Virus record (IMG/VR): IMGVR_UViG_3300045988_108325 | Location: 1 to 36,581 of that record | Source: a virus | Strand: one strand, 5' to 3' | DNA: 36,581 nt | Position numbers and translations under genes: made by a program | The notes under the pieces: generated by a model | Told to the model about the DNA's origin: nothing | Databases searched by the model: none | Seen by the model: the letters and a program-made list of their open reading frames with translations, nothing else | Shown: positions 1-36,581 of the stretch, in pieces | Layout of the letters: every line of letters starts with the position of its first letter | Numbering within the stretch: position 1 is the first letter of the stretch

Positions 1-644
1 AATTCAAGAACACGGTAAGTTTTGATAATGATGTATTTTACAAGACCAATCGAATACAGTTATATGGGCTTACGGCAAATAACGGCTCGGCTCTTCCTTT
101 GCCTAACAATGATTTGAATTTAGTAACAAAAACGGGTTTATATTCATTAGTTCAGGCTAGCAAAAACACGCCTCCAGACTATAGAAATTTTAACGGCTCA
201 GTATTAAGAGTTACTCACAACAATACAGGTTTAGGCGTTACATTCATCATTCAGGAATATCTAGCGCATAATTGTTACATGTATAGAACGTATACAAGTA
301 ATAATTGGAGTGAATGGAAATATATAATTGACCCTGACACTGATTGGAAACGTCCAGTTTTAGAGAGCGGATGGAAACATGATGCCGATTACGGCGAAAT
401 CTATTTTTCAAAAGTTGGCGATGTGGTATACTTACGAGGGAACATGAAAGAAGGCGCAACGGCTTATGATTCAAAAATATTTACGTTGCCACCAAAATAC
501 AGACCAAAAGTGAACCAGTACTTGATTGCTATTAACGGCTCTTATGACAATGCTTCATTTATCGTACAAAAAAATGGAGATATTCGAGTTCGTTACGTAA
601 AAGGCAATTGGGTCGGATTCGACGGCGTATCATTCAAAATCTAA
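1..644 (+). CDS. 3' portion of the receptor-binding / tail-fibre protein gene that begins at 35131 and wraps through the circular junction; full protein about 680 aa
   Basis: The frame is open from base 3 with no stop before 644 and is identical to the frame of the ORF that starts at ATG 35131 after applying the 36,526-bp offset. The position after Dit and Tal is where the host-specificity protein usually sits. The listed start at 99 is a TTG, not the real start. Confidence 0.75.
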   Translation, partial: FKNTVSFDNDVFYKTNRIQLYGLTANNGSALPLPNNDLNLVTKTGLYSLVQASKNTPPDYRNFNGSVLRVTHNNTGLGVTFIIQEYLAHNCYMYRTYTSNNWSEWKYIIDPDTDWKRPVLESGWKHDADYGEIYFSKVGDVVYLRGNMKEGATAYDSKIFTLPPKYRPKVNQYLIAINGSYDNASFIVQKNGDIRVRYVKGNWVGFDGVSFKI

Positions 645-661
645 AAAGAGAGGTATAAATT

Positions 662-877
662 ATGGAAATCGAACAAGTGAAACAAAAACATCAGCAATTA
701 TCTGAAGAAATTGCAAAGAAAAATGACGATTTAAACAATATTAAGAAATCAAAAGCAAATTTGGAGTCTGATTTAAACGTCGTAAAAGAAAATATTGCAA
801 CTGCCGAGCAAGTGATTTTTGATAAACGTGAGGAATTGAAAAAATTAGAAATCGCAATCGAGGTTATGGAGCGTTGA
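662..877 (+). CDS. hypothetical coiled-coil protein, 71 aa
   Basis: RBS AGAGAGG 8 nt before ATG 662. The protein is charged with heptad-like repeats and lies between the tail-fibre gene and the lysis cassette. Confidence 0.55.
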   Translation: MEIEQVKQKHQQLSEEIAKKNDDLNNIKKSKANLESDLNVVKENIATAEQVIFDKREELKKLEIAIEVMER

Positions 878-1302
878 ATTCATTTTTATCAGACGCAGTT
901 TTAATTGCGGTTATCGGCGGAATCGTTAGTATCGTAACGGCTAAAATCACGGCAGAAAACAAGGAAAACGCCGAACGAATATTGGGGCAATTAAAAGATA
1001 TTAATGACCGTGTTAACAAAGTCCAATGCGAGGTAATTCAGGTTAAAGAAATCGGACTTGATAACCGTTCAGGGATTCAACGGACACAAAGATATAGATT
1101 GCAGGAAGACATGGAACAAGCAATCCGAGACGGTTATATTACGCCGTCAAAGTTGAGAGAAATCGGTAAATTGTACGAAAGTTACACCAACTTGGGGGGG
1201 AATGGAGAAATTAAAGATTTACATGAGGTTATCGTACGTTTACCAATCAAACAAAGGAAAGGAATTAAAGAAATATGGAACAAATTCAAACGGCTATTTT
1301 AA
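874..1302 (+). CDS. lysis-cassette membrane protein with one N-terminal TM segment and a coiled-coil tail, holin-like or holin accessory
   Basis: TTG start overlaps the upstream stop (TTGA) with GAGGT 7 nt upstream. The N-terminus SFLSDAVLIAVIGGIVSIVTA is hydrophobic. The gene sits directly upstream of the holin and endolysin. Confidence 0.5.
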   Translation: MNSFLSDAVLIAVIGGIVSIVTAKITAENKENAERILGQLKDINDRVNKVQCEVIQVKEIGLDNRSGIQRTQRYRLQEDMEQAIRDGYITPSKLREIGKLYESYTNLGGNGEIKDLHEVIVRLPIKQRKGIKEIWNKFKRLF

Positions 1303-1622
1303 ATAGCTTACTAACAATTTTAGTCGCAATGATTGGCTTTGCCTTTCAATGGCTAAAAAAGTTCATCGACGCTAAAACGGATGAGTTAAAAGCAAAAACT
1401 AATGCAAAGGATTTTGAGTTGATTCAATCAATCGCAAAAACAGTTGTAGGAGCGGTTGAGCAAATCGCCAACAATGTAGCTCTTTCATCTACTGAAAAAT
1501 TCGCAAAAGCGGATGAATTGTTAACACAAGAACTTGCGAAACAAGGGTTCACACTTACGGACGAAGCTAAAAAGACACTTATTGAAAGTGTTGTAAATGG
1601 CTATAACTCACTTAAAAAGTAA
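1275..1622 (+). CDS. holin (LL-H-like family: one N-terminal TM segment plus a hydrophilic C-terminus)
   Basis: 115 aa with N-terminal TM LLTILVAMIGFAFQW. It is immediately upstream of the endolysin, and the overall shape is typical of Lactobacillus/Streptococcus phage holins. Confidence 0.65.
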   Translation: MEQIQTAILNSLLTILVAMIGFAFQWLKKFIDAKTDELKAKTNAKDFELIQSIAKTVVGAVEQIANNVALSSTEKFAKADELLTQELAKQGFTLTDEAKKTLIESVVNGYNSLKK

Positions 1623-1675: not shown

Positions 1676-2659
1676 ATGGTAGAAATTATTGAACGTGATA
1701 TTTTCCAAGGAATTGCAGGGAAACGACCAACAGAAGCACCAAAATATTTCATCTTGCATAATGACGCAGGAAGTATGAGTGCTAAACAGTACATTGGTTG
1801 GCTACAATCACGATATGACAACGGACAAGCTTACCTGGGCTTTGCACATTATTACATCGACCGTAACACTATTGTACGTGTTGAAAACACTTATAACGGC
1901 TCATGGTCAACGGCAGACCCTGAAGGAAATATGAACTCAATCGGTTACGAAGTTTGCCAACAATTATCAGCAAATGATGTTGATTTTAGAGAAAATGAAG
2001 AAATGTGCTTACGTCAAATGGCAGAGGATATGAAATTTTACGGCGTTGAGCCTGATTATAATTCAATCAAGCTACACAACGAATTCACGCCTACAAGTTG
2101 CCCTAAACGAACGCTTGAATTGCACGGAAACTCTAACGATAGCGTGAGAGATTTCATTATTCGTAAAATCAAACATTACATGTCATTAGGTAATACAGTA
2201 CAAGAAATGATTGACGCAGAGGTTCAAAAGTCCGATGGTTGGGTTAAAGACGAAAAAGGCTGGTGGTACCGTCGCAAGGATGGTAGCTATCCTGCTGATA
2301 AAGCCGAAATGATTGGCAACGAGTGGTTCCAATTCGATAAAAATGGGTATTGCCTAACTAATCAATGGTATAACGACGGCACATTCTACTACTACCACGA
2401 CGCACGAGGCGCTTCAATTCGTGCACGTTGGGCTGAAATCGATGGTAAATGGTACTATTTCAACTTATCAGGCGAAATGCAAACGGGGTGGGTTAAATAC
2501 AAAGACCATTGGTTCTATTGCGACCCAAGTAACGGCGATATGAAAGTCGACCAATATATCAAGAGTGGCAAAGGATGGTACTACCTCAAACCAAATGGCG
2601 AAATGGCGGACAAAGAAGCGTTCACGATTGAGCCTGATGGGTTGATTACAGTTAAATAG
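1676..2659 (+). CDS. endolysin: N-acetylmuramoyl-L-alanine amidase (Amidase_2/PGRP type) fused to about six choline-binding repeats
   Basis: N-terminal zinc-ligand pattern FILHNDAG...IGYEVCQ...KLHNEFTPTSCP. The C-terminus is built of GW/WYY repeats ending GWYYLKPNGEMADKEAFTIEPDGLITVK, nearly identical in pattern to the C-termini of pneumococcal LytA and phage Pal. RBS AAAGAGG upstream. Confidence 0.93.
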   Translation: MVEIIERDIFQGIAGKRPTEAPKYFILHNDAGSMSAKQYIGWLQSRYDNGQAYLGFAHYYIDRNTIVRVENTYNGSWSTADPEGNMNSIGYEVCQQLSANDVDFRENEEMCLRQMAEDMKFYGVEPDYNSIKLHNEFTPTSCPKRTLELHGNSNDSVRDFIIRKIKHYMSLGNTVQEMIDAEVQKSDGWVKDEKGWWYRRKDGSYPADKAEMIGNEWFQFDKNGYCLTNQWYNDGTFYYYHDARGASIRARWAEIDGKWYYFNLSGEMQTGWVKYKDHWFYCDPSNGDMKVDQYIKSGKGWYYLKPNGEMADKEAFTIEPDGLITVK

Positions 2660-2672
2660 ACGCATCATCATA

Positions 2673-2710
2673 GAGAGTTTGACTATTTAGTCAGACTCTT
2701 TTTTATTTTT
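2673..2710 (+). terminator. rho-independent terminator after the endolysin, which ends the late operon
   Basis: 11-bp stem AGAGTTTGACT / AGTCAGACTCT with one G-U pair, loop ATTT, then TTTTTATTTTTT. Confidence 0.8.
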
Positions 2711-2762: not shown

Positions 2763-2802
2763 GTATTTGTAAGTAAGAGATAACACAAAGGAGAGAATGA
2801 AA

Positions 2803-3042
2803 ATGACAACAACAGAAAGACTAACACTAAACCAAAAAACAATAGAGTTATTACAAACGAAAGGAAACGATAAGTCAAAAAGAATCGTAAAAGACCATAA
2901 ATTGGTTATTGAGTACTATCAAATGGAGCGTGAGAGATATATTAGAGAAAATAAAGAGATTTGCATTGAGGGGTTAAATAAATTCGCAATCAATACAAGT
3001 GATGAAATGTTATTATTAATGCAACAAGCGGTTTTTAATTAA
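2803..3042 (+). CDS. hypothetical early protein, about 79 aa
   Basis: RBS AAAGGAGAG. The ATG at 2803 has better spacing than the ATG at 2797. It is the first gene downstream of P1. Confidence 0.55.
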   Translation: MTTTERLTLNQKTIELLQTKGNDKSKRIVKDHKLVIEYYQMERERYIRENKEICIEGLNKFAINTSDEMLLLMQQAVFN

Positions 3043-3057
3043 GGAGGAAAAAAGAAG

Positions 3058-3453
3058 ATGATTGCAACAGGTTTCAAAATTGATAGTAAAACAGCAAGAA
3101 AGGTTTTCAATGGTGAGTTTGAAAGTTTACCATTGATATTAGTCAACAGTAAATTAGCATTTATGATTAGAAAAGAAGAGTTGCAAAAAAATTACAGCAG
3201 GTCGGAACACATCAAAAGAGGCGATTTTAACAGATTGCGAAAAATGGAAATCATCGTCAAAAAGATAGATAATTTTGAAAGAGGCGAACACATTTTTAGT
3301 GCATTCATCATGGCAAAAAGTTCGCACAATAATAAATGGTATATTAACGGCAAACAATACTGCAACAGCTACATGGGAGTAGGAACACGTTTCACATTTA
3401 CCGATGAAACAGTGGACGAAATTAATTATATTTATAACCGTGAGGAGGAGTAA
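3058..3453 (+). CDS. hypothetical early protein, 131 aa, paralog of 3674..4090
   Basis: RBS AGGAGG 9 nt upstream. Shares K-A-K-x-F-x-G-F-x2-LPL and GxGTxFTFTxExxDxI motifs with the 3674 product. Confidence 0.6.
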   Translation: MIATGFKIDSKTARKVFNGEFESLPLILVNSKLAFMIRKEELQKNYSRSEHIKRGDFNRLRKMEIIVKKIDNFERGEHIFSAFIMAKSSHNNKWYINGKQYCNSYMGVGTRFTFTDETVDEINYIYNREEE

Positions 3454-3455
3454 CA

Positions 3456-3671
3456 ATGAAAGAGGCAGAAATTTATTCAGAAAAAGCGAACAAATTATTT
3501 TGGTATTACAAACGAAATTACGGGATTTTCATTTTAAGTACATTAGTAAGATACAGAGATACACTATATAAATACTCTAAACTAAAATCACTAGGAAAGA
3601 TTCAAACAAAGCGATACAACGAAATGAAAAAGCATATTGACGAATTAGAAAAAGAAAGAAACGAGGGTTAA
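3456..3671 (+). CDS. hypothetical small basic protein, 71 aa
   Basis: RBS GAGGAGG upstream. The ORF is tightly packed between its neighbours. Confidence 0.5.
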   Translation: MKEAEIYSEKANKLFWYYKRNYGIFILSTLVRYRDTLYKYSKLKSLGKIQTKRYNEMKKHIDELEKERNEG

Positions 3672-3673
3672 AA

Positions 3674-4090
3674 ATGAGAGTAGAAGTCAGCAAGAAAGTG
3701 GCGAAAGAAATATTTATGGGGGATTTTAAAAATCTCCCTCTTGAATACACTAATTTAGATTCAGAAAACCCAATAAATAAAGAATTGTTAAATATAAGAC
3801 ATTCAAAACCAGATATTATAAGGGAAGAAGATTTTGACGGATTGAAATTTATGAGAGTTATTTTGAAAGAATCAGAGTATGACCATTTTTACAAACGCAA
3901 ACAATTTGAAGTGTTTGTTTTAGTCAACATCGAGGGATGTTGGTTTGTATCTTTATTTAAAGATAGTTCATCAATAGGTATCGGAACATCTTATACATTT
4001 ACAAAAGAGCAAATAGATATAATCGGCGAAAGAGTAAAAAACAACCAAACCATTATCAGCAAACAAAAAGATATAAAAATATCTGAATAA
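3674..4090 (+). CDS. hypothetical early protein, 138 aa, paralog of 3058..3453
   Basis: RBS ACGAGGG. Motifs shared with the 3058 product are described under that feature. Confidence 0.6.
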   Translation: MRVEVSKKVAKEIFMGDFKNLPLEYTNLDSENPINKELLNIRHSKPDIIREEDFDGLKFMRVILKESEYDHFYKRKQFEVFVLVNIEGCWFVSLFKDSSSIGIGTSYTFTKEQIDIIGERVKNNQTIISKQKDIKISE

Positions 4091-4110
4091 TGTTTTATGA
4101 GGAATAGAAA

Positions 4111-4446
4111 ATGAAACTAGAAGAAATCAAAAACGTAATTGAATGTATAGACGAAATTGTTAAAGAAGCAAGAGGATTGACAGAAACCGCCGAAAAAACA
4201 TCAATAGACACATTAAAAAATAATTATTTAATAGGGGAGACAGTAAAAATCTATGGTCGAGTGAAAGCGAATAATGCAAAAATAAATGTATTAGAATTGC
4301 GAATTAAAAGTTCAATTCTTAATCAGAGTGATATTGCAACAACTGTTGCGGTAGAAGAAATGTATAGAGCGTTACATTTTATTAGGGTCGATGTAGATAA
4401 TTTGAAAATGTTCTACAAAGAAAGCATTAAAAACTCAAAAAAATAG
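4111..4446 (+). CDS. hypothetical protein, 111 aa
   Basis: RBS GAGGAA. It is the last gene before the strong terminator at 4453. Confidence 0.5.
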   Translation: MKLEEIKNVIECIDEIVKEARGLTETAEKTSIDTLKNNYLIGETVKIYGRVKANNAKINVLELRIKSSILNQSDIATTVAVEEMYRALHFIRVDVDNLKMFYKESIKNSKK

Positions 4447-4452
4447 TACAGT

Positions 4453-4483
4453 AATGGCAGTCAAACGACTGTCATTATTTTTT
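4453..4483 (+). terminator. rho-independent terminator
   Basis: 10-bp stem AATGGCAGTC / GACTGTCATT with one G-U pair, loop AAAC, then ATTTTTT. Confidence 0.8.
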
Positions 4484-4513
4484 AAAAAAATCGAAAAAAG
4501 TTATAAAAAAGTG

Positions 4514-4542
4514 TTGACAATATATAACGTACATGATATAAT
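4514..4542 (+). promoter_or_regulatory. early promoter P2: TTGACA, 17 bp, TGaTATAAT
   Basis: Perfect -35 and -10 with TG extension. The spacer matches the other four copies. Confidence 0.85.
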
Positions 4543-4589
4543 GTAATTGTAAGTGAGAGATAAATAAAAACACAAAAGGAGCAATTAAC

Positions 4590-4850
4590 ATGACAAACTA
4601 TGAAAAACTACAAGCAGAGGCACAAAGAACAAAAGAATTAGTAACTCAAGCGGTTATCATTATACCTGAGGACGAACTAGAGTTTAGCGATATGAGAGAC
4701 ATCAAAAAACTAGCAGAACTAGTTGATGAAAAAGTAAAAATGACTGAGGGAAGAACAGAGGATAGAAGAGAAGAATCAGCTAGAATTAACGTACAATACG
4801 TTAGACATCACAACCAACGACTACTAGAAATCATTGAATCGTATAACTAG
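4590..4850 (+). CDS. hypothetical protein, 86 aa
   Basis: RBS AAAGGAG, first gene after P2. Confidence 0.5.
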   Translation: MTNYEKLQAEAQRTKELVTQAVIIIPEDELEFSDMRDIKKLAELVDEKVKMTEGRTEDRREESARINVQYVRHHNQRLLEIIESYN

Positions 4851-4861
4851 GAGGAGAAAGA

Positions 4862-5146
4862 ATGACATACTTTGAAGAATTAGAAAAAAGCACGGCAATC
4901 ATCAAGGCGCTAGGAGGAGAAATCCTCAAATCTAGCGCCAACGATGACGAAATAATGATTACATCACAAATTGTTAAAGATACAGTTTACCGCTTTAAAA
5001 GAGCGAAAGAAACGGGTTTAAATTCAAGACAATCATATTCAAGAGACGCACTAATTTTCGCAAGAGACGACATTAGAACACTTAAAAAAATCTATTCAGA
5101 GGCGTGTTTTGAACAATTAGAAAAAAATATTGAAAAAAGCCTATAA
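4862..5146 (+). CDS. hypothetical protein, 94 aa
   Basis: RBS AGGAGGAG upstream. Confidence 0.5.
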   Translation: MTYFEELEKSTAIIKALGGEILKSSANDDEIMITSQIVKDTVYRFKRAKETGLNSRQSYSRDALIFARDDIRTLKKIYSEACFEQLEKNIEKSL

Positions 5147-5151
5147 AACTA

Positions 5152-5180
5152 TTGACAACATATAACAAGCGTGATATAAT
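5152..5180 (+). promoter_or_regulatory. early promoter P3: TTGACA, 17 bp, TGaTATAAT
   Basis: Same architecture as the other copies. The spacer is more diverged (acatataacaagcgtga). Confidence 0.8.
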
Positions 5181-5217
5181 AATAATGTAAATAAGAGATA
5201 TAAAGGAGCAAACGAAA

Positions 5218-5718
5218 ATGAAACATTCAAGATGGAGCAAAAAAGACGGAACTTTAAAATTTGGAGATTTTGACAGAGACTACACATTCAAAGGTTTCAA
5301 ACCTGAACAATTCTTAAAATGTTCAAATAAATACGTTGAGTTAACAGGTTCTCACGTATCAGAGGATGGAAACAACGTTGTAATTAAAATCGCACCTAAT
5401 CATGTAATTCCAACAAAATTTGGCTTTGCAATCATTGTAGACGCAAAAAGAGTTGTATTTATCAAACATTGGCAAGTATGGGGCACATCATTTAAAGACG
5501 ATAGCTATATCGTATCTTTCAACCGTCAATTTTATCAAATTAAAGAATGGGGCGACCATTCAGCAGAATTTGGCGAATATGAAGACATCAATGAAAGCGA
5601 CATGGGAAACTTTGACAATCTTGTAAAACTAGCTAAAAAACAAGAAGAATATTACAACGGATATGACATTGACGAGGACGGCGATAAAGTTAGACGTTCA
5701 TTTATGTGGCACTGGTAA
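5218..5718 (+). CDS. hypothetical protein, 166 aa
   Basis: RBS AAAGGAG. The C-terminus is acidic. Confidence 0.5.
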   Translation: MKHSRWSKKDGTLKFGDFDRDYTFKGFKPEQFLKCSNKYVELTGSHVSEDGNNVVIKIAPNHVIPTKFGFAIIVDAKRVVFIKHWQVWGTSFKDDSYIVSFNRQFYQIKEWGDHSAEFGEYEDINESDMGNFDNLVKLAKKQEEYYNGYDIDEDGDKVRRSFMWHW

Positions 5719-5730
5719 GAAGGGGCAACA

Positions 5731-6093
5731 ATGATTAAATATAAACATAAAATGATGTTGCTGATTAAAAACGTCAAAATCATTGCAAAAGAGAGTTCGG
5801 AAGTATACGGATATATCGGGAAGCATTCGGATGATACGCGAGAATGGGGCGAGGGGTTAAATTACATGCAAACCATTCAAGAGAGCGTTTTAAAAATTAT
5901 ACATCTCTTTGAAAGATACGAAAAAGCAAAAGAGGCTTTCGGCGATGGAGTGAATGCTCCATCGTATTTAAAGCTTATGTGGAATCAAGAGATAAATTTG
6001 TTAGAAGCGAGTGCAAACTTGACTATATTACGTGCGAGAGTGAGGGAAAGAAATGAACGAAATACTAAAGACATTGCAAACAGTCGAAAATAA
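5731..6093 (+). CDS. hypothetical protein, 120 aa
   Basis: RBS AGAAGGGG. It overlaps the next gene by 41 nt. Confidence 0.45.
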   Translation: MIKYKHKMMLLIKNVKIIAKESSEVYGYIGKHSDDTREWGEGLNYMQTIQESVLKIIHLFERYEKAKEAFGDGVNAPSYLKLMWNQEINLLEASANLTILRARVRERNERNTKDIANSRK

Positions 6094-6364
6094 CTTAAAT
6101 TATATATATGACGAGGGGAACAGTATTCTTTTAAGAATCGTTTCAGGAAAACGTGGAACAAAAACATATATGCAAGCCGTTGAAATTTTATCGAAAATCG
6201 AACAACTAAAAAACGAGGTTGAATCGACCAGAAACCTCTTTGAAAGGTCGCAAAAACAAGATACGGCTTGCAAAGGATTTTTACTTTTTTGCAACAAATA
6301 CTCAACGATGGCATTAAGTCGATTGAAAAAACTTGAAGAACTTGAGAAAGGGGGAAATGAATAA
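6053..6364 (+). CDS. hypothetical protein, 103 aa
   Basis: RBS GAGGGAAAG 4 nt before the ATG. Confidence 0.45.
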   Translation: MNEILKTLQTVENNLNYIYDEGNSILLRIVSGKRGTKTYMQAVEILSKIEQLKNEVESTRNLFERSQKQDTACKGFLLFCNKYSTMALSRLKKLEELEKGGNE

Positions 6365-6565
6365 ATGAAAGTAAATACAAAGGATATTGAATGGCTATTG
6401 AATAATGCGACTCAATATCGCATTTCAAAAGAGGCGAAAGTACATCAAAGTATTTTATCAGGACTAATCAATAATACACGAAAAATGGAAAATTTATCGG
6501 TTAAAATTGCAAGTCGTTTGACTGATTACGCAGGCGAATTAAAAAAAGAAAAAAATAAAAAATAA
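6365..6565 (+). CDS. small putative DNA-binding protein with an HTH-like segment
   Basis: The segment RISKEAKVHQSILSGLINNTRK resembles an HTH. The protein is 66 aa. RBS AGGGGGAAA. Confidence 0.4.
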   Translation: MKVNTKDIEWLLNNATQYRISKEAKVHQSILSGLINNTRKMENLSVKIASRLTDYAGELKKEKNKK

Positions 6566-6578
6566 TTTATCAAAACTA

Positions 6579-6607
6579 TTGACAACGTATAACATACGTG
6601 ATATATT
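6579..6607 (+). promoter_or_regulatory. early promoter P4: TTGACA, 17 bp, TGaTATATT
   Basis: Same architecture as the other copies, with the AAAACTAT upstream flank. Confidence 0.75.
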
Positions 6608-6633
6608 ATATGTGTAGAAAGGAGGAAACGAAA

Positions 6634-6858
6634 ATGACAAGAATTGAAATTGAACGAGAGCGCCAAAAAGAAAGAAAACGTAAAAAGAACATCATGCGAA
6701 AAGAGTTCTTGAAACAATACTTTAAATTTTTAGGTTTTGTAGCGTTTATCTTCATTACAGGCGTATTTTTTATGTGGTGCTCTTGTGGTGCTCAAGAACA
6801 ACAATTCAATGAGGTTGAAGCTTGGAAAAATAACACATACGTATATCCACAAGGTTAA
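6634..6858 (+). CDS. small membrane protein with one TM segment, about 74 aa
   Basis: The listed 6598 start lies inside the promoter -10. ATG 6634 has RBS GAAAGGAGG. The TM segment is FLGFVAFIFITGVFFMW. Confidence 0.5.
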   Translation: MTRIEIERERQKERKRKKNIMRKEFLKQYFKFLGFVAFIFITGVFFMWCSCGAQEQQFNEVEAWKNNTYVYPQG

Positions 6859-6880
6859 AAAAGAAAGGAGCAAACAAATA

Positions 6881-7069
6881 ATGGATTTTGAACAAATGCA
6901 CAATAGATATTTAGAAGAGGATGAGCCAGTGATTTTTGGTACAGATTGGAAAGGGCATGAAATTTATGAAGGCGATGAATATTTTGATATTGATGGCAAT
7001 TATGTACTTGTAGATGATGTTGAGGAGTTCGTAAGAGAAAATTACAACAAATTTACGGCAGGAGAGTAG
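6881..7069 (+). CDS. small acidic hypothetical protein, about 62 aa
   Basis: ATG 6881 with RBS AAAGGAG. The earlier in-frame stretch has no RBS. Confidence 0.45.
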   Translation: MDFEQMHNRYLEEDEPVIFGTDWKGHEIYEGDEYFDIDGNYVLVDDVEEFVRENYNKFTAGE

Positions 7070-7071
7070 AA

Positions 7072-7740
7072 ATGACTGAATTAAAATTGCATGAAAGATT
7101 ATTGAATGTCCAACATAAGTTGAAGGCACCAAAAGGACAATATAACAAGTTTGGAAATTTTAATTATAGAAGTGCCGAGGATATCCTAGAAGCCGTTAAA
7201 CCTTTAAATTTTGAAAATGGTTTAACGTTGACAATCAGCGATGAGGTTAAAGAGGTCGCAGGAAGAATCTATGTTGTAGCGGTTGCGACTGTAACGGATG
7301 GAACGGACAGTATAAGTGTACAAGCCCTAGCAAGAGAGCCTGAAAATCGTAAAGGGATGGACGAAAGCCAAATAACAGGGGCTACATCATCATACGCACG
7401 GAAATACGCTTTAAACGGCTTATATGCGATTGATGATAACAAAGACTCGGATAACGAGAATAATAATAAAAATGAACAAAACAAAGAGGATGACGGCTCA
7501 AAAGAACTAATTTTATTAGTTTCAAAATATCTTGAAAAATTAGAATCTATGGGCGTTGAAAGAAAAGTAGTAGTTGATTACATTTGCGAAACTTACAAAG
7601 TTAAACAGATTTTAGAAGTCGCACCAAATAAATTAATCGGCGAACTTAAAAAAATCTACTTTAAAAAGAAAAGCGATATTGAAAAACAACAACAAGAACA
7701 AACCAATACACAAACGAATGGAGTCGATGACGAATGGTAA
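7072..7740 (+). CDS. ERF-family single-strand annealing protein (recombinase)
   Basis: The segment NFNYRSAEDILEAVKP...GATSSYARKYALNGLYAIDD matches the conserved ERF core of P22 Erf. RBS GGCAGGAG. Confidence 0.85.
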   Translation: MTELKLHERLLNVQHKLKAPKGQYNKFGNFNYRSAEDILEAVKPLNFENGLTLTISDEVKEVAGRIYVVAVATVTDGTDSISVQALAREPENRKGMDESQITGATSSYARKYALNGLYAIDDNKDSDNENNNKNEQNKEDDGSKELILLVSKYLEKLESMGVERKVVVDYICETYKVKQILEVAPNKLIGELKKIYFKKKSDIEKQQQEQTNTQTNGVDDEW

Positions 7741-9767: not shown

Positions 9768-9784
9768 AGAGTGAGGAAGAAACA

Positions 9785-25597: not shown

Positions 25598-25611
25598 AAG
25601 GAGTTTTAATC

Positions 25612-25803: not shown

Positions 25804-25829
25804 ACCTCTTAAATTAGGAGGTTGAAAGT

Positions 25830-26222: not shown

Positions 26223-26223
26223 T

Positions 26224-26905: not shown

Positions 26906-26908
26906 ACG

Positions 26909-27769: not shown

Positions 27770-27784
27770 ATAATCATAACTTGC

Positions 27785-27811
27785 GAGGGGCTTAGTTGCC
27801 CCTCTTTTTTT
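27785..27811 (+). terminator. rho-independent terminator after the major tail gene
   Basis: Stem GAGGGGC / GCCCCTC, loop TTAGTT, then TTTTTTT. Confidence 0.8.
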
Positions 27812-27837
27812 ATAAAAATAAGAAAGAGGTAAATAAT

Positions 27838-28275: not shown

Positions 28276-28290
28276 AAAGAGGAAGTCTAT

Positions 28291-28851: not shown

Positions 28852-28854
28852 TAT

Positions 28855-31800
28855 TTGTCTGATGGAAAATTAGAAATAAAAGTCGTCGTTGATGGCTTGG
28901 ATATGGATAAGCTGAACAAAAAATTGAAAGAGTTGAAATCTGAATTGAGCAAGCCTGCTAAAGGGGCAGGATTCGACGAATTTAAAAAAGAATTAGCGGA
29001 TGTAACTGAAAAATCAACAAAGACTAAAACCAAAGTAAAAGATTTAAAAGAAGAGGTCTCGCAACCGACAAAATCCAAAGGTTTAGATAATGTAAAGGAC
29101 GATTTAGCAAAGACGGGTAAAGAAGCCGACACTACCAAAACAAAGGTAAAAGGGCTAAATGACGAGTTACAAAAGCCTATTCCTGATAATACAAATGGAT
29201 TGCCTGACAAATTCAAAAAAACAGGCGATGAAGCGGACAAAGGTAAAAGTAAAGTAAAAGACTTTTTCCTAGCTTTTAGTGCGGTCAGAATTGCAGAAAA
29301 AGCAATCGGCATACTTTCTAGCTCATTAGATGGAGCTATTAAACGTTTTGACACATTAAACAGTTATCCTCGTGTATTAAAACTAATGGGATATAGTACG
29401 GAAGAGGTTGCTAAAAGTACGAAACAACTTTCGGACGGAATCGATGGGCTACCGACCCGACTTGATGAAGTAGTATCAACGGCGAAACAGTTTACCACGA
29501 TTACGAAAGATATTAAGTTTGCAACTAAACTGACAATTGCATTAAACAATGCTTTTCTTGCTAGTGGTTCAAGTAGTGAGGATGCAGCCCGAGGTTTACT
29601 ACAATTTCAACAAATGTTATCTAGTGGAAAACCCGACATGCAGTCATGGAAAACGTTACAAGAAACAATGCCTATTGCGTTGACGAAAACCGCAGAGGCG
29701 TTTGGATTTACTGGTAAAAGCGCAAAAACTCAATTCTATAATGCACTTAAAGAGGGCAAAATCACTTTCGACCAATTTGGGAAGAAACTTATTGAGTTAA
29801 ACAAAGGTGTGGGCGGTTTTGAAGAGTTGGCAAAAGAAAGTTCACGAGGTATCGGAACATCGTTGAAAAACTTAGCAAACTCTAGTGTAAAAGGTCTTGC
29901 AAGCATGATACAAGCCTTTGACGACCTTTCTAAGGCGGTAACGGGTAAAAACATCGACCAACACATTGACAGCCTTAAAAACCTCATAAACGGCAGTTTT
30001 AATACTATGAACGGCATTATTAGAGGTAGTATACCAACTTTCAAAGAAATTGGGCGTGTGTTTGGAGAAATTTATAGATTTATCCAACCTTTAGAGCCAG
30101 CTTTTGCGGGGCTTTTGGCGTCTATTTTAACATTCAAGAGTGTTAACTTAGTTGTTGATATCCTAGGTAAATTTGGGTTTACCGCTGTAAACTTGAATGG
30201 TATTATTTTAGGACTTACAACTAAAATCATTCAGGCAGGCGGTGTGATTCCTGCTCTAGGCACGGCGATTAGTGGACTAATAGGAACTATTAATACGGTT
30301 ATCAATGCGACAAATGGTTGGACGCTTGCACTAACAACAGTCGTTGGCGGTTTGACTGCTATGTATTTATGGTTAAATCGTGAAAGCGAGGCAAGTAAGA
30401 ACTATAAGGCAGGACTAGAGGAATCTAAAAAAGCAACGGATTCAATGATAACAAGCATTGATGATGTTATTGATAAACAAAAAGAATTGACTGAGGTTTC
30501 CAAGGCTAGTGCGGACGGTAACAGAAAACTTGCGGACGAGATTTTCGCCCTTGCAGGTAAGGAAAATAGAACTGCTGCGGAAACTGTCCTGCTTAAAAAA
30601 CACATTGAAACTCTTAATGGTAATGTTGACGGATTGAACTTAAAATTCGACAAAAACACTAAACTGTTAAGCATGAACAAAGACCAAATTTTGCAACGTA
30701 TCAACGCAGGTTCAGGAAATCAAAAACTTATCGACTTGGAAAAGGCGTTGCAAGATTCGTATGACACAACAGGAAAAGCACAATCAAGATTGCTCGAATT
30801 GAAAGAGAAAATCACTCAAATACAAAATGATGAAAACTTATCCATGAAAGAGGCGTTCGACCTCATAAAGCCGTTAGGCGATGAATACGACAAACTTTCA
30901 GGCAAATTGCCTGAGTTAGAACAAGCTCAAGAAAGTTTAAAGCAAGAAATGGTAAGCGCTAGTCAAGAAATCGCAACAGCCGTAAGCAACGGTGCAAATG
31001 AACAAGTAATCACTTACCAGTCGTTGACACAAAATCAACAACAAGCGGTAGACCAAATGAACTCAAAATACAATGAGTTGAAAGACAGCGCCTCGAATAT
31101 GTTCGACCGTATTCAACAAAAGGCGGTTATCTCTACTCAGGATGTAATTGCGAACATGCAAGCCAATACCGAGGCTGTAAGAGTCATGGGCGATAATATT
31201 CAAGTATTAATGCAACGAGGCGTCGACCAAGGTTTAATTGAGAAATTACGCCAAGCAGGGCCTGAGAGCGCTCAACAAATTCAAGCGTTAGCAAGCTCAA
31301 CCGATGCAGAATTGCAACAATTGAATACTACCTACCAAAATGCAGGGGATACAGCAAAAAAAGCCTTGTTACAATCTCTAAACATTCCCGAAGGCGAATT
31401 AGCGCCACAAATTGAGGGAATGATTACAGCGAGCAAATCGTCCTTGATGTCTGCGGTAGAGTCGGCAGATTTTGGTAGCATTGGTAAAAAGATGACTACT
31501 GACATCGCAGGAAGTATCACGGAAAATGCAACAGCCCCTACCGAGGCAGTTAGTACGGTAGCAACTGACACAAAAACAGCCTTTGATACCGCAATAGGCA
31601 ACTCAATGACTGAGGCAGGCACAAAGATTACAACCGACTTATCAGGCGGTATCAATAGTGGTGCAGGAGAGGTCGGAACTGCTATGGACGGCGTAAAAGG
31701 TAAAGCAGAAGCGGGAATGAATGAGACAGTCTCAGTTGTTCAAGTGAAAGCTAAAGAAATACCAAACAAAATTCGTGATATTTACGGTTCAATGGTTTCA

Positions 31801-32286
31801 AGCGGTCAATACGCTATGAGCGGGCTTTCTAGCGGTATGTCGAACGGTGCAGGTCAAGTTTATGCAATGGCTGAAACAATCGCAAGCAATATTCGTTCAA
31901 AAATTAAAAGTGCATTAGATATTCATTCGCCGTCAAGGGTCATGAGGGATGAGGTCGGAAGATTCATTCCTGAGGGGCTTGCGGTCGGTATTGATAAATA
32001 TTCAAATACAGTTGACAAGCCTATTCAACGAATGAAAGAACGCATTGCAAACTTTGATTTTTCAGCAGATAACCTCATCAATCGAGGAAGAAGAGTTTTT
32101 GAAAATGGTTTGAACGCCTTTTCAAGTAATCAGTATCTACAAATGGAAATTGCGAACGGTGGTTTCACAGTAGAGGTACCAGTCACGGTTGGAGAAAGAG
32201 AGATAGCAAAGGTCATTGCGCCTATTGTTAGAAGCGAAAATAAACGTGTAGAAAGGTTAGAAAGATTTACGAGGGGGGAAAAGTAA
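28855..32286 (+). CDS. tape measure protein
   Basis: 1143 aa. N-terminal coiled-coil repeats, central hydrophobic segments and a C-terminal region. TTG start with RBS AGGAGG. Confidence 0.9.
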   Translation: MSDGKLEIKVVVDGLDMDKLNKKLKELKSELSKPAKGAGFDEFKKELADVTEKSTKTKTKVKDLKEEVSQPTKSKGLDNVKDDLAKTGKEADTTKTKVKGLNDELQKPIPDNTNGLPDKFKKTGDEADKGKSKVKDFFLAFSAVRIAEKAIGILSSSLDGAIKRFDTLNSYPRVLKLMGYSTEEVAKSTKQLSDGIDGLPTRLDEVVSTAKQFTTITKDIKFATKLTIALNNAFLASGSSSEDAARGLLQFQQMLSSGKPDMQSWKTLQETMPIALTKTAEAFGFTGKSAKTQFYNALKEGKITFDQFGKKLIELNKGVGGFEELAKESSRGIGTSLKNLANSSVKGLASMIQAFDDLSKAVTGKNIDQHIDSLKNLINGSFNTMNGIIRGSIPTFKEIGRVFGEIYRFIQPLEPAFAGLLASILTFKSVNLVVDILGKFGFTAVNLNGIILGLTTKIIQAGGVIPALGTAISGLIGTINTVINATNGWTLALTTVVGGLTAMYLWLNRESEASKNYKAGLEESKKATDSMITSIDDVIDKQKELTEVSKASADGNRKLADEIFALAGKENRTAAETVLLKKHIETLNGNVDGLNLKFDKNTKLLSMNKDQILQRINAGSGNQKLIDLEKALQDSYDTTGKAQSRLLELKEKITQIQNDENLSMKEAFDLIKPLGDEYDKLSGKLPELEQAQESLKQEMVSASQEIATAVSNGANEQVITYQSLTQNQQQAVDQMNSKYNELKDSASNMFDRIQQKAVISTQDVIANMQANTEAVRVMGDNIQVLMQRGVDQGLIEKLRQAGPESAQQIQALASSTDAELQQLNTTYQNAGDTAKKALLQSLNIPEGELAPQIEGMITASKSSLMSAVESADFGSIGKKMTTDIAGSITENATAPTEAVSTVATDTKTAFDTAIGNSMTEAGTKITTDLSGGINSGAGEVGTAMDGVKGKAEAGMNETVSVVQVKAKEIPNKIRDIYGSMVSSGQYAMSGLSSGMSNGAGQVYAMAETIASNIRSKIKSALDIHSPSRVMRDEVGRFIPEGLAVGIDKYSNTVDKPIQRMKERIANFDFSADNLINRGRRVFENGLNAFSSNQYLQMEIANGGFTVEVPVTVGEREIAKVIAPIVRSENKRVERLERFTRGEK

Positions 32287-33027
32287 ATGTTTAGCATTCA
32301 GATTGATGGAACTGAAATCGGAAATATTATCAAAGTTACAAACGTGGATAGGGGCGGTTTAGCCCCTATTTCCACCGAATATAGACAATATAGTGCGATT
32401 GATGGTTCAAAATTAATCAATAAGAAGTACACTCATCGTACAATCACGATTGAATATTCAATCTATGATGAAGTGAATACAAAATGGGAATTGATAAAGA
32501 AAATCCTTACTAAAAATGAAGTCTTTAAAGTCGTTTTTGGCGATTATCCTGACCGCTATTTTGAATGTATCTTAGACGGCGATACAACGTTTGAGAAACA
32601 TAGTAAACAATTTGCAAGCGGAACAATCAGCCTTGTAGCACCTCATCCTTTCGCTTATAGTGTTCAAGAGTCAACGGCAGTAAGGGATGGGAATAAATTG
32701 ATTTTCGATAATCAAGGTACATCAAAAGGCTATCCCGTAATTGAATTTGTAGCGGAAAGAGATTACATGATGATTGGATTTTCAGCACCGAAAGACAATT
32801 ACGCCCAATTTGGATACAGTACTAATACCGTGCCGATAATCAAGGTAGAGCAACGGTTTTCGTATGATTCAAAAACGAATAAGGCTTTCGTGGATTCTAA
32901 AAGGATTTATTTAAGTGAGGGCAGGGGTCTTGTTATCAATCCAAACAGAAAAGTAGAGGTTGGTTTAACATTTCCTGATAGTATCAATCAAGTTGTAACT
33001 GGCACGTTAAGGAGTGAGTATATTTGA
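32287..33027 (+). CDS. distal tail protein (Dit)
   Basis: 246 aa directly after the tape measure gene. Confidence 0.7.
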   Translation: MFSIQIDGTEIGNIIKVTNVDRGGLAPISTEYRQYSAIDGSKLINKKYTHRTITIEYSIYDEVNTKWELIKKILTKNEVFKVVFGDYPDRYFECILDGDTTFEKHSKQFASGTISLVAPHPFAYSVQESTAVRDGNKLIFDNQGTSKGYPVIEFVAERDYMMIGFSAPKDNYAQFGYSTNTVPIIKVEQRFSYDSKTNKAFVDSKRIYLSEGRGLVINPNRKVEVGLTFPDSINQVVTGTLRSEYI

Positions 33028-35123
33028 TTACATTTTATTCGAGAGGTTATGAGATAGTTGCTCAGGCTAGTTTCAACCGTGATGGCGGATTGGTAGCGTA
33101 TGACGATGTGTTTCACGACGATTTAAACACGGGAATTTCGACGTTTAAGTTCTCAATAGATAAAACTACCGAGGAAGCCGAAAAAATCGCTCTAGGGCTT
33201 TATATTCGTGTTTTAACGCACGATGATAGGAAGCTATGGTTCGAGATAATGGATATTGATGAAGATAACGGCAGAATGGATATAACCGCCGTTGACGCAG
33301 GAATCGACCTAATAGGGGAAAGTGTTTGGCCTTATGAAGCCGATAAAGCGTATGATATTAGACATTATCTTGAAAGAGATATGTATGATAGTGGATGGCT
33401 CCTTACAATCTCAAACACGATTTTCCAACGTGAAAGAAAGTTAAAATTTGAGGGATTCGAGACGGCTAGTAAACGTATTAGACAAATTGCAAGAGGATTT
33501 GGCGCCGAGATTGAATATGAAATCATTGAGAAAAACGGTAAACCAGTTCAAAAATATGTGAATATCGTTGAAAAAATGGGGAAAGATAAAGAAATACGCT
33601 TGGAATACGGAAGAGAAATATCAAATATTAAAAAGCGCTCAAGTATTCAAAACCTTGCGACCGCCTTACGTGGGCACGGTGCCGAGGGGCTTACCCTAGA
33701 GGGATATTCGTATAATGACGGTCGTTATTGGGTCGGTGGCGATACAATCCACGATTTGAGAGAGGGCGCACGTTGGAGCCGTCATGCGGATGTTGCAAAG
33801 GACGGCGGATATATCGTTTCAACCTATGAAAGTGAAGCAACAACGAAAGAAAGGCTATTTCAGGAAACTTTAGCACAATTAAAGAAACGTGCTTATCCTG
33901 AGGTGGAATATGAGATTGATTTTTCTGAACTACCTGAGGAAGTAAGAAAGGGCGATACGGTCATTATCGTTGATTACGATTTTAAACCCGCTCTTAAATT
34001 GAAAGCTAGGGTTACAGAAATCGAATGCTCGTTATCTAAAGGATTTTATGGCGAGGGTAGGGTAATCGTTTCAAACATCGAAAAAAGAGGAATAAGCGTT
34101 GATGAACAGTTGCGAACTGTTGAAAAATTCTTAAAACAGTCCACTTTTGATTTTAGTAAGGTTCCTGCCGTGGCTCATATCCATTCAGAAAAAGGAACAG
34201 TCTTCAGTAATACGGATAGTGCAAGAACTACACTTGTAGCAAAAGTTACACGTTTCGATATTGATACAACAAGCGAATACACGTTCAAGTGGAAGCGAGT
34301 AAGCGCAAAACCGACTGAAAAGGATGAACAATGGAACGCCGAAAATCGTACAAGCAACCGTATTGAAATCACTAAAGAAGATATCAATGTTCAAGCTGAA
34401 TTCATTTGCGAATTTTACAAAAATGGCGCATTAGAGCTAACAAAAGGTATTGTCTTAAAGGATTTAACTATAAACAAATACAAAGGCGATACAGCCCCTA
34501 AAAATCCACAATCAGGCGATTTTTGGACGGATACCTCAGGACAAAAAGAAGTCTTGAAAGTATACACAAACGGCGAATGGAAGCCTGTAATATCTGATAA
34601 CGCTGATAATATTGATAAATTCAAAAAAGAATGGGAATTGAATAACAGGGAATACGCTGATAAGTTAACGAAAATCATTCAAGAGTTAGAAAGTGTTAAA
34701 GAAGAGGAAAAATACACTCGTGATTTAACAGGTCGTTTTGGAGATTTAGAAAAAGCATATAAACGTATCCTAGAACAAGAAAAGACCATAGAAAAATTGG
34801 GCGAACGACAAAAAGCCTATGAGTTAACGTTGGAACAGTCAAGTGCCATCATTAGTACATTTGGCACATTCTTCAACTTCTCGGATGATGGTTTAGAAAT
34901 CGGTAAAAAGGGCGCAAACATGAAGATGGTGCTTAAAAATGACCGTGTAGAGTTCTTGGACGGTGGTAAACTAACCGCATACATGAGCGGTCAGAAAATG
35001 TTTATCGTATCAGGGGCGTTTTGGCAATCAATCAACATCGGAAATCATACTTTTGAGAAATTTGGCGATGAGTATACAATCGTTTCTTATTCAGGTTCAA
35101 GCGCTATGGAACTAGGGAGGTAG
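33024..35123 (+). CDS. tail-associated lysin / tail endopeptidase (Tal)
   Basis: 699 aa after Dit. The N-terminal region is conserved with siphovirus Tal / prophage tail endopeptidases. Confidence 0.7.
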   Translation: MITFYSRGYEIVAQASFNRDGGLVAYDDVFHDDLNTGISTFKFSIDKTTEEAEKIALGLYIRVLTHDDRKLWFEIMDIDEDNGRMDITAVDAGIDLIGESVWPYEADKAYDIRHYLERDMYDSGWLLTISNTIFQRERKLKFEGFETASKRIRQIARGFGAEIEYEIIEKNGKPVQKYVNIVEKMGKDKEIRLEYGREISNIKKRSSIQNLATALRGHGAEGLTLEGYSYNDGRYWVGGDTIHDLREGARWSRHADVAKDGGYIVSTYESEATTKERLFQETLAQLKKRAYPEVEYEIDFSELPEEVRKGDTVIIVDYDFKPALKLKARVTEIECSLSKGFYGEGRVIVSNIEKRGISVDEQLRTVEKFLKQSTFDFSKVPAVAHIHSEKGTVFSNTDSARTTLVAKVTRFDIDTTSEYTFKWKRVSAKPTEKDEQWNAENRTSNRIEITKEDINVQAEFICEFYKNGALELTKGIVLKDLTINKYKGDTAPKNPQSGDFWTDTSGQKEVLKVYTNGEWKPVISDNADNIDKFKKEWELNNREYADKLTKIIQELESVKEEEKYTRDLTGRFGDLEKAYKRILEQEKTIEKLGERQKAYELTLEQSSAIISTFGTFFNFSDDGLEIGKKGANMKMVLKNDRVEFLDGGKLTAYMSGQKMFIVSGAFWQSINIGNHTFEKFGDEYTIVSYSGSSAMELGR

Positions 35124-35130
35124 CTAAACA

Positions 35131-36581
35131 ATGCAATTTAAAAAATTCTTATATAATGGTTACGTTTCCCTTGTTCTACAAGTAGAAGAAACGAATATCG
35201 ACAAATTAAACAACAAAAGTACAATTGAGTGGATTCTATGGATTCAGAGAGAAAGCGCATATACTTACGACCTGAACAACGGAAGTAAGGCGAGCGTGCA
35301 AATTGGCGATGATGTAGTATTTAATCAATATGTATCTCATGATTTGAGAAATAAAGATAAAGAGGAACTCGGAAGAGGTACGAAAGAAATCTTACACGAC
35401 GATAACGGCGAAAAATCTATCACGGTTTGGGCTAGAATGTTAGAGGTCGCAGGTTTAGCCGATATCGATTGGTTCAGCGGAACAGTCACATTGACTAAAA
35501 TTGAAAGGGAAAGTCAAATTAAAAAAGTGATTGCTACTGAACTTGGGCAACCTGTCGAAATCCAAATAGACAGAAAAGTTCCTGATTTTCGTCATCAAGC
35601 GTGGTATCGTATCAACGGTTCAGGGTGGTTTGATTTAGGCGATAAGATAGCATACGCAAAAATGTTTGTGCCGTCCGTTGACTTAGCAACTCACATCCCC
35701 AATAGTGATACTGGTGTCATTGATGTGTGTGTAAGAACGTATCTAGGAGATAAGCAGATTGGGAATGATGTATATGTACGAGATACGAAAATTAAAGTTC
35801 CTGAAAGCGTTGTTCCAACCATCGAGAATATGACGGTAAGCGAATTTAATAATAAAGTCGCAAGATTAATGCCTCAAAACGAGTATTTAACGACTGTATC
35901 TCACATCAAAGCTGAAATCATAGGCGCAAATGCCGTTCTAGGGGCTACAATTTCGACTTTTAAAATCAGGATGGGTTCTAGTGTCGCTTATTACAAAGAG
36001 GGCTATTTTAGACCTGATAAGGCAGGAACGTTTGATATTATAGGAGAGGTCACTGATAGCCGAGGGCGTGTTGCGAGAGTAACGAAAAGTGTTAAAATTC
36101 ACGACTATAAGACGCCTAAAATCAATGTGTTTCTTCCTTTGAGGTCAGGAAATGGAACTAACAAGAATGTTAAGGCTCAAACGAGTATAACAGTTAGTGA
36201 TGTTAGGATAAATGGGCGCTCTATCAATGAATATAGAGTACAAGTCGAGTATTTAAGCAATGGTTCCCCACAATGGACTACTGCTTTAAACGAAACGTCA
36301 ACGCAACCGAATTATGTAAAAACTATTGATTTAGGAAGCATGTACGAGCTTTCGCAATCTTACGATTTCACGTTAACTGTAAACGATAAATTTGGTTATC
36401 CAGTCAGTGCGACATGGCACGTAAGACCGTCTAGAGTCTTAGCCGTATTTTCAAGAAACGGCTTCCATTTAGGGGAAATGCCCGAGGAAAACGAAAAAGA
36501 CATGTTCACATCGGCGCTACCTGCCAAATTCAAGAACACGGTAAGTTTTGATAATGATGTATTTTACAAGACCAATCGAAT
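35131..36581 (+). CDS. 5' portion of the receptor-binding / tail-fibre protein gene; no stop within the window; continues in frame into 1..644
   Basis: RBS GGGAGG 10 nt before ATG 35131. The frame is open to the window end and the frame arithmetic matches the 1..644 segment. Confidence 0.75.
   Translation, partial: MQFKKFLYNGYVSLVLQVEETNIDKLNNKSTIEWILWIQRESAYTYDLNNGSKASVQIGDDVVFNQYVSHDLRNKDKEELGRGTKEILHDDNGEKSITVWARMLEVAGLADIDWFSGTVTLTKIERESQIKKVIATELGQPVEIQIDRKVPDFRHQAWYRINGSGWFDLGDKIAYAKMFVPSVDLATHIPNSDTGVIDVCVRTYLGDKQIGNDVYVRDTKIKVPESVVPTIENMTVSEFNNKVARLMPQNEYLTTVSHIKAEIIGANAVLGATISTFKIRMGSSVAYYKEGYFRPDKAGTFDIIGEVTDSRGRVARVTKSVKIHDYKTPKINVFLPLRSGNGTNKNVKAQTSITVSDVRINGRSINEYRVQVEYLSNGSPQWTTALNETSTQPNYVKTIDLGSMYELSQSYDFTLTVNDKFGYPVSATWHVRPSRVLAVFSRNGFHLGEMPEENEKDMFTSALPAKFKNTVSFDNDVFYKTNR
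36527..36581. repeat. exact 55-bp duplicate of positions 1-55 (circular-assembly overlap)
   Basis: Base-by-base identity over 55 of 55 positions. Confidence 0.95.

Follow-up and report, generated by a model that had tools for sequence, protein, structure and literature searches.

Virulent streptococcal siphoviruses that carry other genes where their temperate relatives have lysogeny genes are, as a general phenomenon, already well known from dairy phages, and the concept of a lysogeny replacement module has been described (PMC8470116). Sfi11 (NC_002214), a virulent phage coded on one strand, has small genes between its lysin and a cro-like gene, and its orf183 is the anti-CRISPR protein AcrIIA6 (E 4e-108). 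A second described system is the Aca11 regulator of streptococcal prophages. The promoters controlled by Aca11 consist of TTGACA, a 17-nt spacer and TATACT, with the inverted repeat AGTATATAACAAATGTTATATACT or AATATATAACAAATGTTATATACT between the hexamers, and Aca11 represses promoters both upstream and downstream of its own gene (PMC12658196, PMC12282945). Here we analyse the 36,581-nt virus record IMGVR_UViG_3300045988_108325 from IMG/VR (positions 1 to 36,581, the whole stretch being referred to below as the window), in which elements of both systems meet: a block of small genes follows the endolysin gene, the last gene before the missing lysogeny module (g15) encodes an Aca11 homologue, and five copies of one promoter cassette lie among the early genes.

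We consider it likely that the window represents an uncultured oral siphovirus of a choline-bearing mitis-group host, which was built on a temperate backbone, lost the block from int to cro, multiplied its post-lysin genes and promoter cassettes, damps its early genes with the g15 product and grows lytically.

The lost lysogeny module

Gene functions were assigned with Pfam and PHROGs. Across all 62 genes, neither collection gave an integrase, serine recombinase, transposase, CI, Cro, ImmA, antirepressor or partition ATPase, nor a repressor of the S24 or ImmR type, and the small open reading frames (ORFs), when scanned singly against Pfam at E values up to 1, likewise yielded none of the same lysogeny functions. 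The Int, lipoprotein, ImmA, CI, Cro and ORF97 proteins of two temperate relatives and of a third temperate phage had no tblastn match with E < 0.1 in the window or in its close relatives. The absence of an integrase or recombinase of this kind, as originally predicted, is borne out by these searches.

The nearest cultured relatives of the window are temperate streptococcal phages, with the TerL protein 60-64% identical to those of Javan554 and PH15 (S. gordonii) and the capsid protein about 61% identical to that of Javan268. Two uncultured temperate relatives, IMGVR_UViG_3300045988_074896 (c074896, rebuilt from three loci) and 7000000393_000004 (permuted in a way that leaves its lysogeny region contiguous), show 73-74% identity to the window in the portal, 74-75% in TerL and 79-81% in the HNH protein. 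The gene order in 7000000393_000004 is lysin, a g06-like gene and a g15-like helix-turn-helix (HTH) gene, followed by int, lipoprotein, ImmA and cI on the minus strand, and then cro, a 97-amino-acid (aa) ORF, g16-like and g17-like genes and Erf. The temperate relatives c074896 and L103 are syntenic with the window from g16 onward, and have the int-to-cro block between the aca-like gene and g16. The temperate relatives carry one strong promoter cassette after the lysin gene, and attP after the aca11-like gene.

The window is collinear with these phages on both flanks and everything between g15 and g16 is gone. The junction spans 6566-6633, the position at which the temperate relatives carry attP, int, the lipoprotein gene, ImmA, cI, cro and the 97-aa ORF, and is occupied in the window by a promoter cassette (P4, 6579-6607, plus strand). 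The collinear flanks, together with the lack of any tblastn match for the Int-to-Cro proteins, indicate that the lysogeny module was lost cleanly at this point. The region following the lysin gene has meanwhile expanded from one or two genes in the temperate relatives to ten in the window, with the result that the genome size stays near 36 kb.

Integrase-less relatives and lifestyle

The same arrangement recurs in 21 further metagenomic loci drawn from IMG/VR and from metagenome contigs. These integrase-less loci have the order lysin, small genes without database matches (ORFans), g12, g15, promoter, g16, g17, recombinase, g19 and HNH; all of their genes lie on one strand and none has Int or CI. 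Identity to the window is 74-88% for g15, 77-80% for g12 and about 70% for g19, except in L022, the closest relative of the window, where g12 is 95% and g19 99% identical. At least three different lysins are found within the clade. The clade contigs are mostly phage-sized or shorter, with those from the metagenome scan measuring at most 36.7 kb and one IMG/VR contig, read in part, measuring 44.8 kb, and the fetched clade stretches contain no host genes. Neither a portal relative nor an integrated copy of the phage was found in 185,579 genomes, one for each species, where the closest lysin is 61% identical.

With no integrase and no CI, the phage would not integrate or establish immunity, and so would grow lytically. 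Synteny and population data both give good backing to the core of the original prediction, in which temperate streptococcal siphoviruses gave rise to a phage that does not integrate, is probably obligately lytic and infects a mitis-group host bearing choline. A strictly lytic descendant of temperate phages is the most likely reading of the genome.

The clade also bears on whether the window might instead be a temperate phage that recently became defective or clear-plaque by deletion, and not a member of an established lytic lineage. Its chief difference from the temperate relatives is indeed one block lost at a single junction. However, the same junction is present in 22 loci from many metagenomes that have diverged in g15, g12 and g19 and carry different lysins, identity to the nearest temperate relative reaches only about 73% in the portal, and about 3.5 kb of new genes, together with extra promoter copies, stand in place of the lost DNA. 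A recent mutant therefore appears very improbable. We give even less credence to a non-canonical route of integration, whether by way of XerS and dif of the host or by a recombinase that went unrecognised among the ORFans. No function could be assigned to about half of the genes, but the ORFans of the relevant region are all 166 aa or shorter, the larger unknown proteins are one with a coiled coil and one with beta-helix repeats, the best match in the window to the streptococcal difSL consensus has 10 mismatches in 31 positions, and no integrated copy was found in the genomes scanned, one for each species.

A second lineage that is integrase-less and coded on one strand is represented by three contigs of about 35 kb (L025, L026 and L062). 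Their lysin is 86% identical to that of the window, and they have their own small early ORFs, a 60-aa XRE-type HTH protein and an Erf recombinase. This points to more than one loss of lysogeny among the phages of oral streptococci.

Early promoter cassettes

Five near-consensus promoters of the sigma-70 type start at positions 2734, 4514, 5152, 6579 and 9316 (P1, 2734-2762; P2, 4514-4542; P3, 5152-5180; P4; and P5, 9316-9344), all of them intergenic and on the plus strand. They score 11-12 out of 12 against the consensus (12/12 for P2 and P3), and each has a TG before the -10 hexamer, giving an extended -10 element. Markov simulations predict 0.29 such promoters as against the five observed, and none is present on the minus strand. 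The five promoters are copies of a single cassette of about 65 bp, aaaacta/aaaagtg-TTGACA-AYRTATAACRTACRTGA-TATAMT-..TGTAAG.., and the closest relative has five copies at equivalent places. The original prediction of five strong promoters is correct as to their number, although it placed them all between the lysin and the replication genes, whereas P5 falls within the replication module, in front of g21 and the replisome organiser gene.

The same prediction described these promoters as constitutive-looking, a description that comparison with Aca11-controlled promoters makes doubtful. The window cassettes have in common with the published Aca11 promoters both hexamers, the 17-nt spacing, 12 of the 17 spacer bases and a TATAAC half-site, as exemplified by P1 (TTGACA-17-TATACT, with an extended -10 and the half-site within its spacer). 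In the clade as a whole, 38 distinct cassette cores were compared. Within the spacer they show no variation at positions 5, 7 and 8 and hardly any at positions 4 and 6 (TATAA), a conservation that is partly by construction because the cores were picked for at least 4/5 matches to TATAA; the flanking spacer positions vary. Over these 38 cores the best dyad axis falls at position 11.5, as in the published Aca11 operator. On the right, the half-site of the window cassettes reads TGATA as opposed to the canonical GTTATA, and this divergence arises partly from overlap with the extended -10 element. In many clade members the promoter just after the aca-like gene is TTTACA-AAGTATAATGAATGTTA-TATAAT, with a canonical right half-site, and the S. 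oralis prophages recovered in our searches have the canonical operator, together with an AcrIIA25-like gene upstream of aca11, right after the lysin gene. From these sequence features we conclude that the cassettes are probably regulated promoters of the Aca11 type and not constitutive ones.

Alternatively, the five promoters could be ordinary strong early promoters that were duplicated along with genes, with the spacer kept by descent and g15 acting on its own operon alone. The finding that a perfect local palindrome is present in only two of the five cassettes fits this explanation, as does the fact that the extended -10 TG accounts for part of the conserved right side. Nevertheless, we think it unlikely, given the near-invariance of TATAA at spacer positions 4-8 amid variable flanks (even allowing for how the cores were selected), the coincidence of the dyad axis with that of the published operator, and the control by Aca11 of a second promoter downstream of its own gene, exactly where P4 lies.

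In the temperate relative c074896 the intergenic region between cI and cro (2655-2817) holds putative CI operators, ATACATAATGTAT and ATACATTATGTA. We considered whether these operators (ATACAT-A-ATGTAT) might be linked to the local palindrome of cassettes P1 and P4 (ATGTAT-AAC-ATACAT). The two share hexamers, but we give this no weight as evidence, since the half-sites are in opposite orientation, and the sharing is probably a coincidence in AT-rich DNA.

g15, the small early genes and a predicted circuit

The gene g15 (6365-6565, plus strand) encodes a 66-aa HTH protein that matches the Aca11 structure 9lx2_A in the Protein Data Bank (PDB) over residues 1-61 (phmmer E 1.2e-13), amounting to full-length homology, and is 49% identical to Aca11 of Streptococcus sp. 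F0441. The protein retains all three of the Aca11 residues Y18, Q28 and R39, for which DNA contact has been shown by mutagenesis or proposed (PMC12282945). The statement in the original prediction that no repressor is present is thus correct with respect to homologues of CI, Cro and ImmA, but overlooked g15, which is the only clear HTH regulator of the phage.

Upstream of g15, the block that replaces the lysogeny genes (2797-6364, plus strand) consists of the ten small ORFans g05-g14. None of these has a match in Pfam, PHROGs, NCBIfam or the PDB sequences, and searches of the small early ORFs against Pfam (E up to 1) and NCBIfam returned only noise. Two of them, g06 and g08, are paralogues, and genes resembling g06 are the only ones between the cassette and the aca gene in a temperate relative. 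A protein identical to that of g06 is present in nr ('MAG TPA: hypothetical protein [Caudoviricetes sp.]'). The AlphaFold model of the g06 protein has a predicted local distance difference test score of 79, and a Foldseek search of the PDB with this model gave no fold match (best E 0.22). For g12 a single relative was found, in Lactobacillus phage Lv-1 (48% identity). In a comparison of the window with AcrIIA4, AcrIIA5 and AcrIIA24-32 and with Orf1-17 of Song 2022, Aca11 was the only match. By their position upstream of an aca-like gene, g05-g14 are candidate anti-defence genes.

These elements can be assembled into a predicted circuit. After injection, the host sigma-A RNA polymerase would fire all five cassettes. 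P1-P3 would drive the candidate anti-CRISPR or anti-defence genes g05-g14 along with g15. P4, in place of a CI-controlled promoter, would drive the operon at 6634-9285 (plus strand; g16, g17, the Erf recombinase gene at 7072-7740, g19 and the HNHc_6 nuclease gene), and P5, a further copy, would drive the replication genes. Expressed from P4 and P5, the recombination and replication genes would no longer be under CI control. A dimer of g15 would bind the dyad in each promoter spacer and lower early transcription, as Aca proteins do. It is possible, and we propose it only tentatively, that an Aca11-type circuit comprising this homologue and its multiplied operator-promoters took over the role of CI and Cro and times the whole early programme, recombination and replication genes among it, and that the ten ORFans form a reservoir of new anti-CRISPR and anti-defence proteins. 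If this is true, the ORFans would act against oral streptococcal Cas9 and other systems. We nominate these ten small proteins for anti-CRISPR and anti-defence screening.

The presence of a real repressor in g15 might also be taken to mean that the phage is still temperate without integrating, persisting as a plasmid-like prophage or in a carrier state by means of a protein with a ParB-like domain and an unrecognised repressor. Such a lifestyle could draw in addition on the ParB_N domain in g43 and on the small HTH-like proteins g25, g29 and g30, which have HTH matches below threshold. However, the ParB_N domain belongs to no partition protein but forms the N-terminus of a DNA methyltransferase (phrog_498), searches of the window revealed neither ParA nor centromere repeats nor an initiator of plasmid replication, there is no repressor of the CI or S24 type, and the g15 family damps acr transcription rather than maintaining lysogeny. 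We therefore judge a non-integrating temperate phage to be improbable, and favour lytic growth with early genes that are damped by g15.

Several observations weigh against this favoured account. The absence of recognisable lysogeny genes is negative evidence, and the species-genome scan sampled one genome per species by a pattern-based search that can miss relatives. Binding of the cassettes by g15 is not assured, because the right half-site deviates from the canonical one and most cassettes have no perfect palindrome. In addition, g05-g14 show no match to AcrIIA4, AcrIIA5, AcrIIA24-32 or the solved Acrs, and no late promoter or late regulator was identified in the window.

Endolysin and host

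The endolysin gene (1676-2659, plus strand) lies downstream of a holin gene (Phage_holin_6_1 in Pfam; 1275-1622, plus strand), and is followed by a strong intrinsic terminator with a 13-bp stem (2672-2701, plus strand) that ends the late operon. The protein combines an Amidase_2 domain (PF01510) with about six choline-binding repeats (PF19127, Choline_bind_3, and PF01473, Choline_bind_1), all above the curated Pfam cut-offs, which confirms that the phage has a choline-binding endolysin. The further description of this lysin as pneumococcal in type is apt for its architecture but not for its sequence, since it is only 36% identical to pneumococcal phage amidases, as compared with 61% to its best relatives, the lysins of S. 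oralis phages. In bacterial genomes, too, the nearest lysins are 61% identical and belong to prophages of S. oralis and S. mitis. The host is thus probably a choline-bearing mitis-group Streptococcus.

A temperate phage in the locus L029 has an endolysin that is 94% identical to that of the window together with a classical int/cI/cro module, implying that lytic and temperate phages trade lysis genes on the same hosts. The L029 module (10866-15402) encodes int, a 494-aa protein, cI and cro, and its PR promoter has the same design as the cassettes, namely TTGACA, a spacer dyad TAACC-GAAAT-GGTTA and then TATAAT.

Genome form and source

The first 55 bases of the window (1-55) are identical to the last 55 (36527-36581), and the assembly is therefore a closed circle. 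With 36,526 unique bp, the genome itself is either circularly closed or permuted, and the window represents it in full. The siphovirus to which it belongs is uncultured. Its GC content is 36.3%, and both GC skew and AT skew are positive over the whole length. All 62 genes that we defined are on the plus strand and together account for 96% of the 36,526-bp circle. On the minus strand there are 72 ORFs of 50 aa or more; they are nested antisense to these genes, and none of the 72 has a Pfam match. Coding on a single strand, as stated in the original prediction, is in agreement with all of these data.

The portal and capsid proteins are also encoded, unchanged, on contigs from human oral metagenomes (ERR589621/PRJEB6997, ZHAN15-1), among them two independent assemblies of 36,610 and 36,544 bp, and no contig with an identical portal or capsid protein is longer than 50 kb. 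A megablast search of bases 1-25000 against 50,697 phage records gave no nucleotide match, and g19 likewise had no match among phage records. The salivary virus 92-C13 (PMC5869506) was considered as a possible identity of the phage, but its published description offers nothing on sequence or lifestyle that would tie it to the window.

The late-gene control region

A non-coding region of 445 bp (17960-18404, plus strand) precedes the late genes and contains three terminators (18036-18066, 18241-18267 and 18364-18381), a hairpin and a tRNA-like minihelix. The last terminator lies too close to the first late gene to leave space for a promoter, so late expression may need read-through. The tRNA-like element (18105-18179) is of tRNA length and has an acceptor-like helix with 6 of 7 pairs (CACTTAC/ATAAGTG) and a perfect T-arm, AGAGG-TTCGATT-CCTCT, with GGTTCGATTCC, but no D or anticodon arms. 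ARAGORN reported no tRNA gene, and Rfam, searched over 17950-18410 at E values up to 10, gave no tRNA or transfer-messenger RNA and only chance-level matches to small RNAs. The approximately 200 nt around the element (18068-18270) fold much better than shuffled sequences (z = -4.3). In L008, the one diverged relative that has the region, the tRNA-like element is nearly invariant, the hairpin at 18079-18098 keeps its pairing through several compensatory changes, and the terminator has a conserved stem and a changed loop. An IMG/VR scan found the tRNA-like motif on one other contig only.

The suggestion that this element is a relic of a lost integration module is not upheld: it lies 11.5 kb from the junction at 6566-6633, where the module was lost, and which it therefore does not mark. 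Moreover, the near-invariance of the element and the compensatory changes in the hairpin point to a functional RNA and not to decay. The structured stretch at 18068-18270 may be a small RNA or an antitermination element.

Other features of the genome

The replication and middle region (9402-17959, plus strand) encodes a DnaD-like replisome organiser (9785-10768), RusA, SSB and a 411-aa protein (12100-13335) with left-handed beta-helix (hexapeptide) repeats, which matches phrog_7964, a family of unknown function, at E 2e-77 and is an unusual gene for a replication region. The same region contains two paralogue families without a family assignment. The proteins of g32, g39 and g42 (14492-14986, 16332-16826 and 17474-17959) are about 160 aa long and 32-35% identical to one another, and have a coiled-coil N-terminus and a conserved Cys/Trp C-terminal domain; g42 is directly upstream of the late-gene control region. 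The pair g37 and g38 (15871-16044 and 16059-16331) encodes small membrane proteins.

After the control region come two ORFs of a ParB-N/N6-N4 DNA methyltransferase (18405-19707, plus strand), which are split at a G8 tract (19081-19088) in the FxGxG motif of the gene. With seven G the two ORFs would join into one reading frame. The G8 is shared by the four loci fetched with an identical portal (L001-L004), at least two of which are from one sequencing run. The split looks like either a slipped-strand phase-variable switch or a fixed frameshift.

The packaging, head and tail module (19740-35123, plus strand) comprises terS, TerL (Terminase_3), an SPP1-type portal, a minor head protein, scaffold, capsid, connectors, the major tail protein, tape measure, Dit and Tal. 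Directly upstream of the scaffold gene (24188-24748) is a GP20-b RNA motif (24105-24173; Rfam RF03003, 41 bits against a gathering score of 36.2). The last gene, g62, encodes a 679-aa tail or receptor-binding protein (phrog_372, E 1e-82) and occupies 35131-36581 on the plus strand, running over the circular junction to base 644.

Comparison with known systems

We know of no cultured lytic siphovirus of this size for the group of S. mitis, S. oralis and S. pneumoniae. The clade turns up repeatedly in human oral metagenomes and is therefore a candidate from which lytic phages and choline-binding lysins directed at these bacteria might be obtained. The genome would also provide a natural example of the passage from a temperate backbone to a lytic one, in which the int-cI-cro block has been lost and the early genes have apparently been rewired to Aca-type promoter copies.

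Dp-1, with a genome of about 56 kb, is among the phages that may be compared with the window on grounds of lifestyle. Like the window, Dp-1, Cp-1 and SOCP have choline-bearing streptococcal hosts and choline-binding lysins, and are lytic (PMC4334900). Cp-1 and SOCP, however, are podoviruses, unlike the siphovirus described here.

The structural and replication backbone, and the gene order, are those of PH15, the Javan prophages and c074896, the last of which is 75% identical in TerL. In contrast to the window, they have genes for integrase, ImmA, CI and Cro, which are coded on the opposite strand. The original prediction linked the window to Sfi11-like phages, which is not upheld at the level of sequence. 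When the 62 window proteins were compared with Sfi11 by tblastn, only the tape measure, Dit, Tal and g62 matched, at 23-31% identity, while TerL, the portal and the capsid lack any BLAST similarity to it.

The acr-aca11 loci of Streptococcus prophages (F0441; Song 2022; NAR 2025; Commun Biol 2025) resemble the early region of the window in having an HTH protein of the Aca11 family with conserved contact residues, strong promoters of the form TTGACA-17-TATACT with a similarly placed dyad axis between the -35 and -10 hexamers, promoters that flank the regulator gene, and a position directly after the endolysin gene. They differ in having two promoter copies, as against five in the window, two of which are placed to drive recombination and replication genes instead of acr. 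Their carriers are prophages, whereas the window is an integrase-less phage in which the right half-site has diverged.

The closest known design to that of the window is the layout of Sfi11 and its fellow virulent S. thermophilus siphoviruses of the genus Brussowvirus, which are also coded on one strand and in which a group of small genes separates the lysin from the replication genes, at the place of int, cI and cro in temperate relatives. The dairy host of Sfi11 contrasts with the oral mitis-group host proposed here, and its lysin is of a different type from the choline-binding one of the window. Sfi11 keeps a cro-like gene, where the window has an Aca11-type regulator and five promoter copies, and the Sfi11 block encodes AcrIIA6, whereas the window ORFans match no known Acr. 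Judged by its genome, the phage falls within a kind already known, that of virulent streptococcal siphoviruses carrying a lysogeny-replacement module, and what it adds is that the replacement appears to be an Aca11-type locus that has expanded, with copies of its promoter now also in front of early replication genes.

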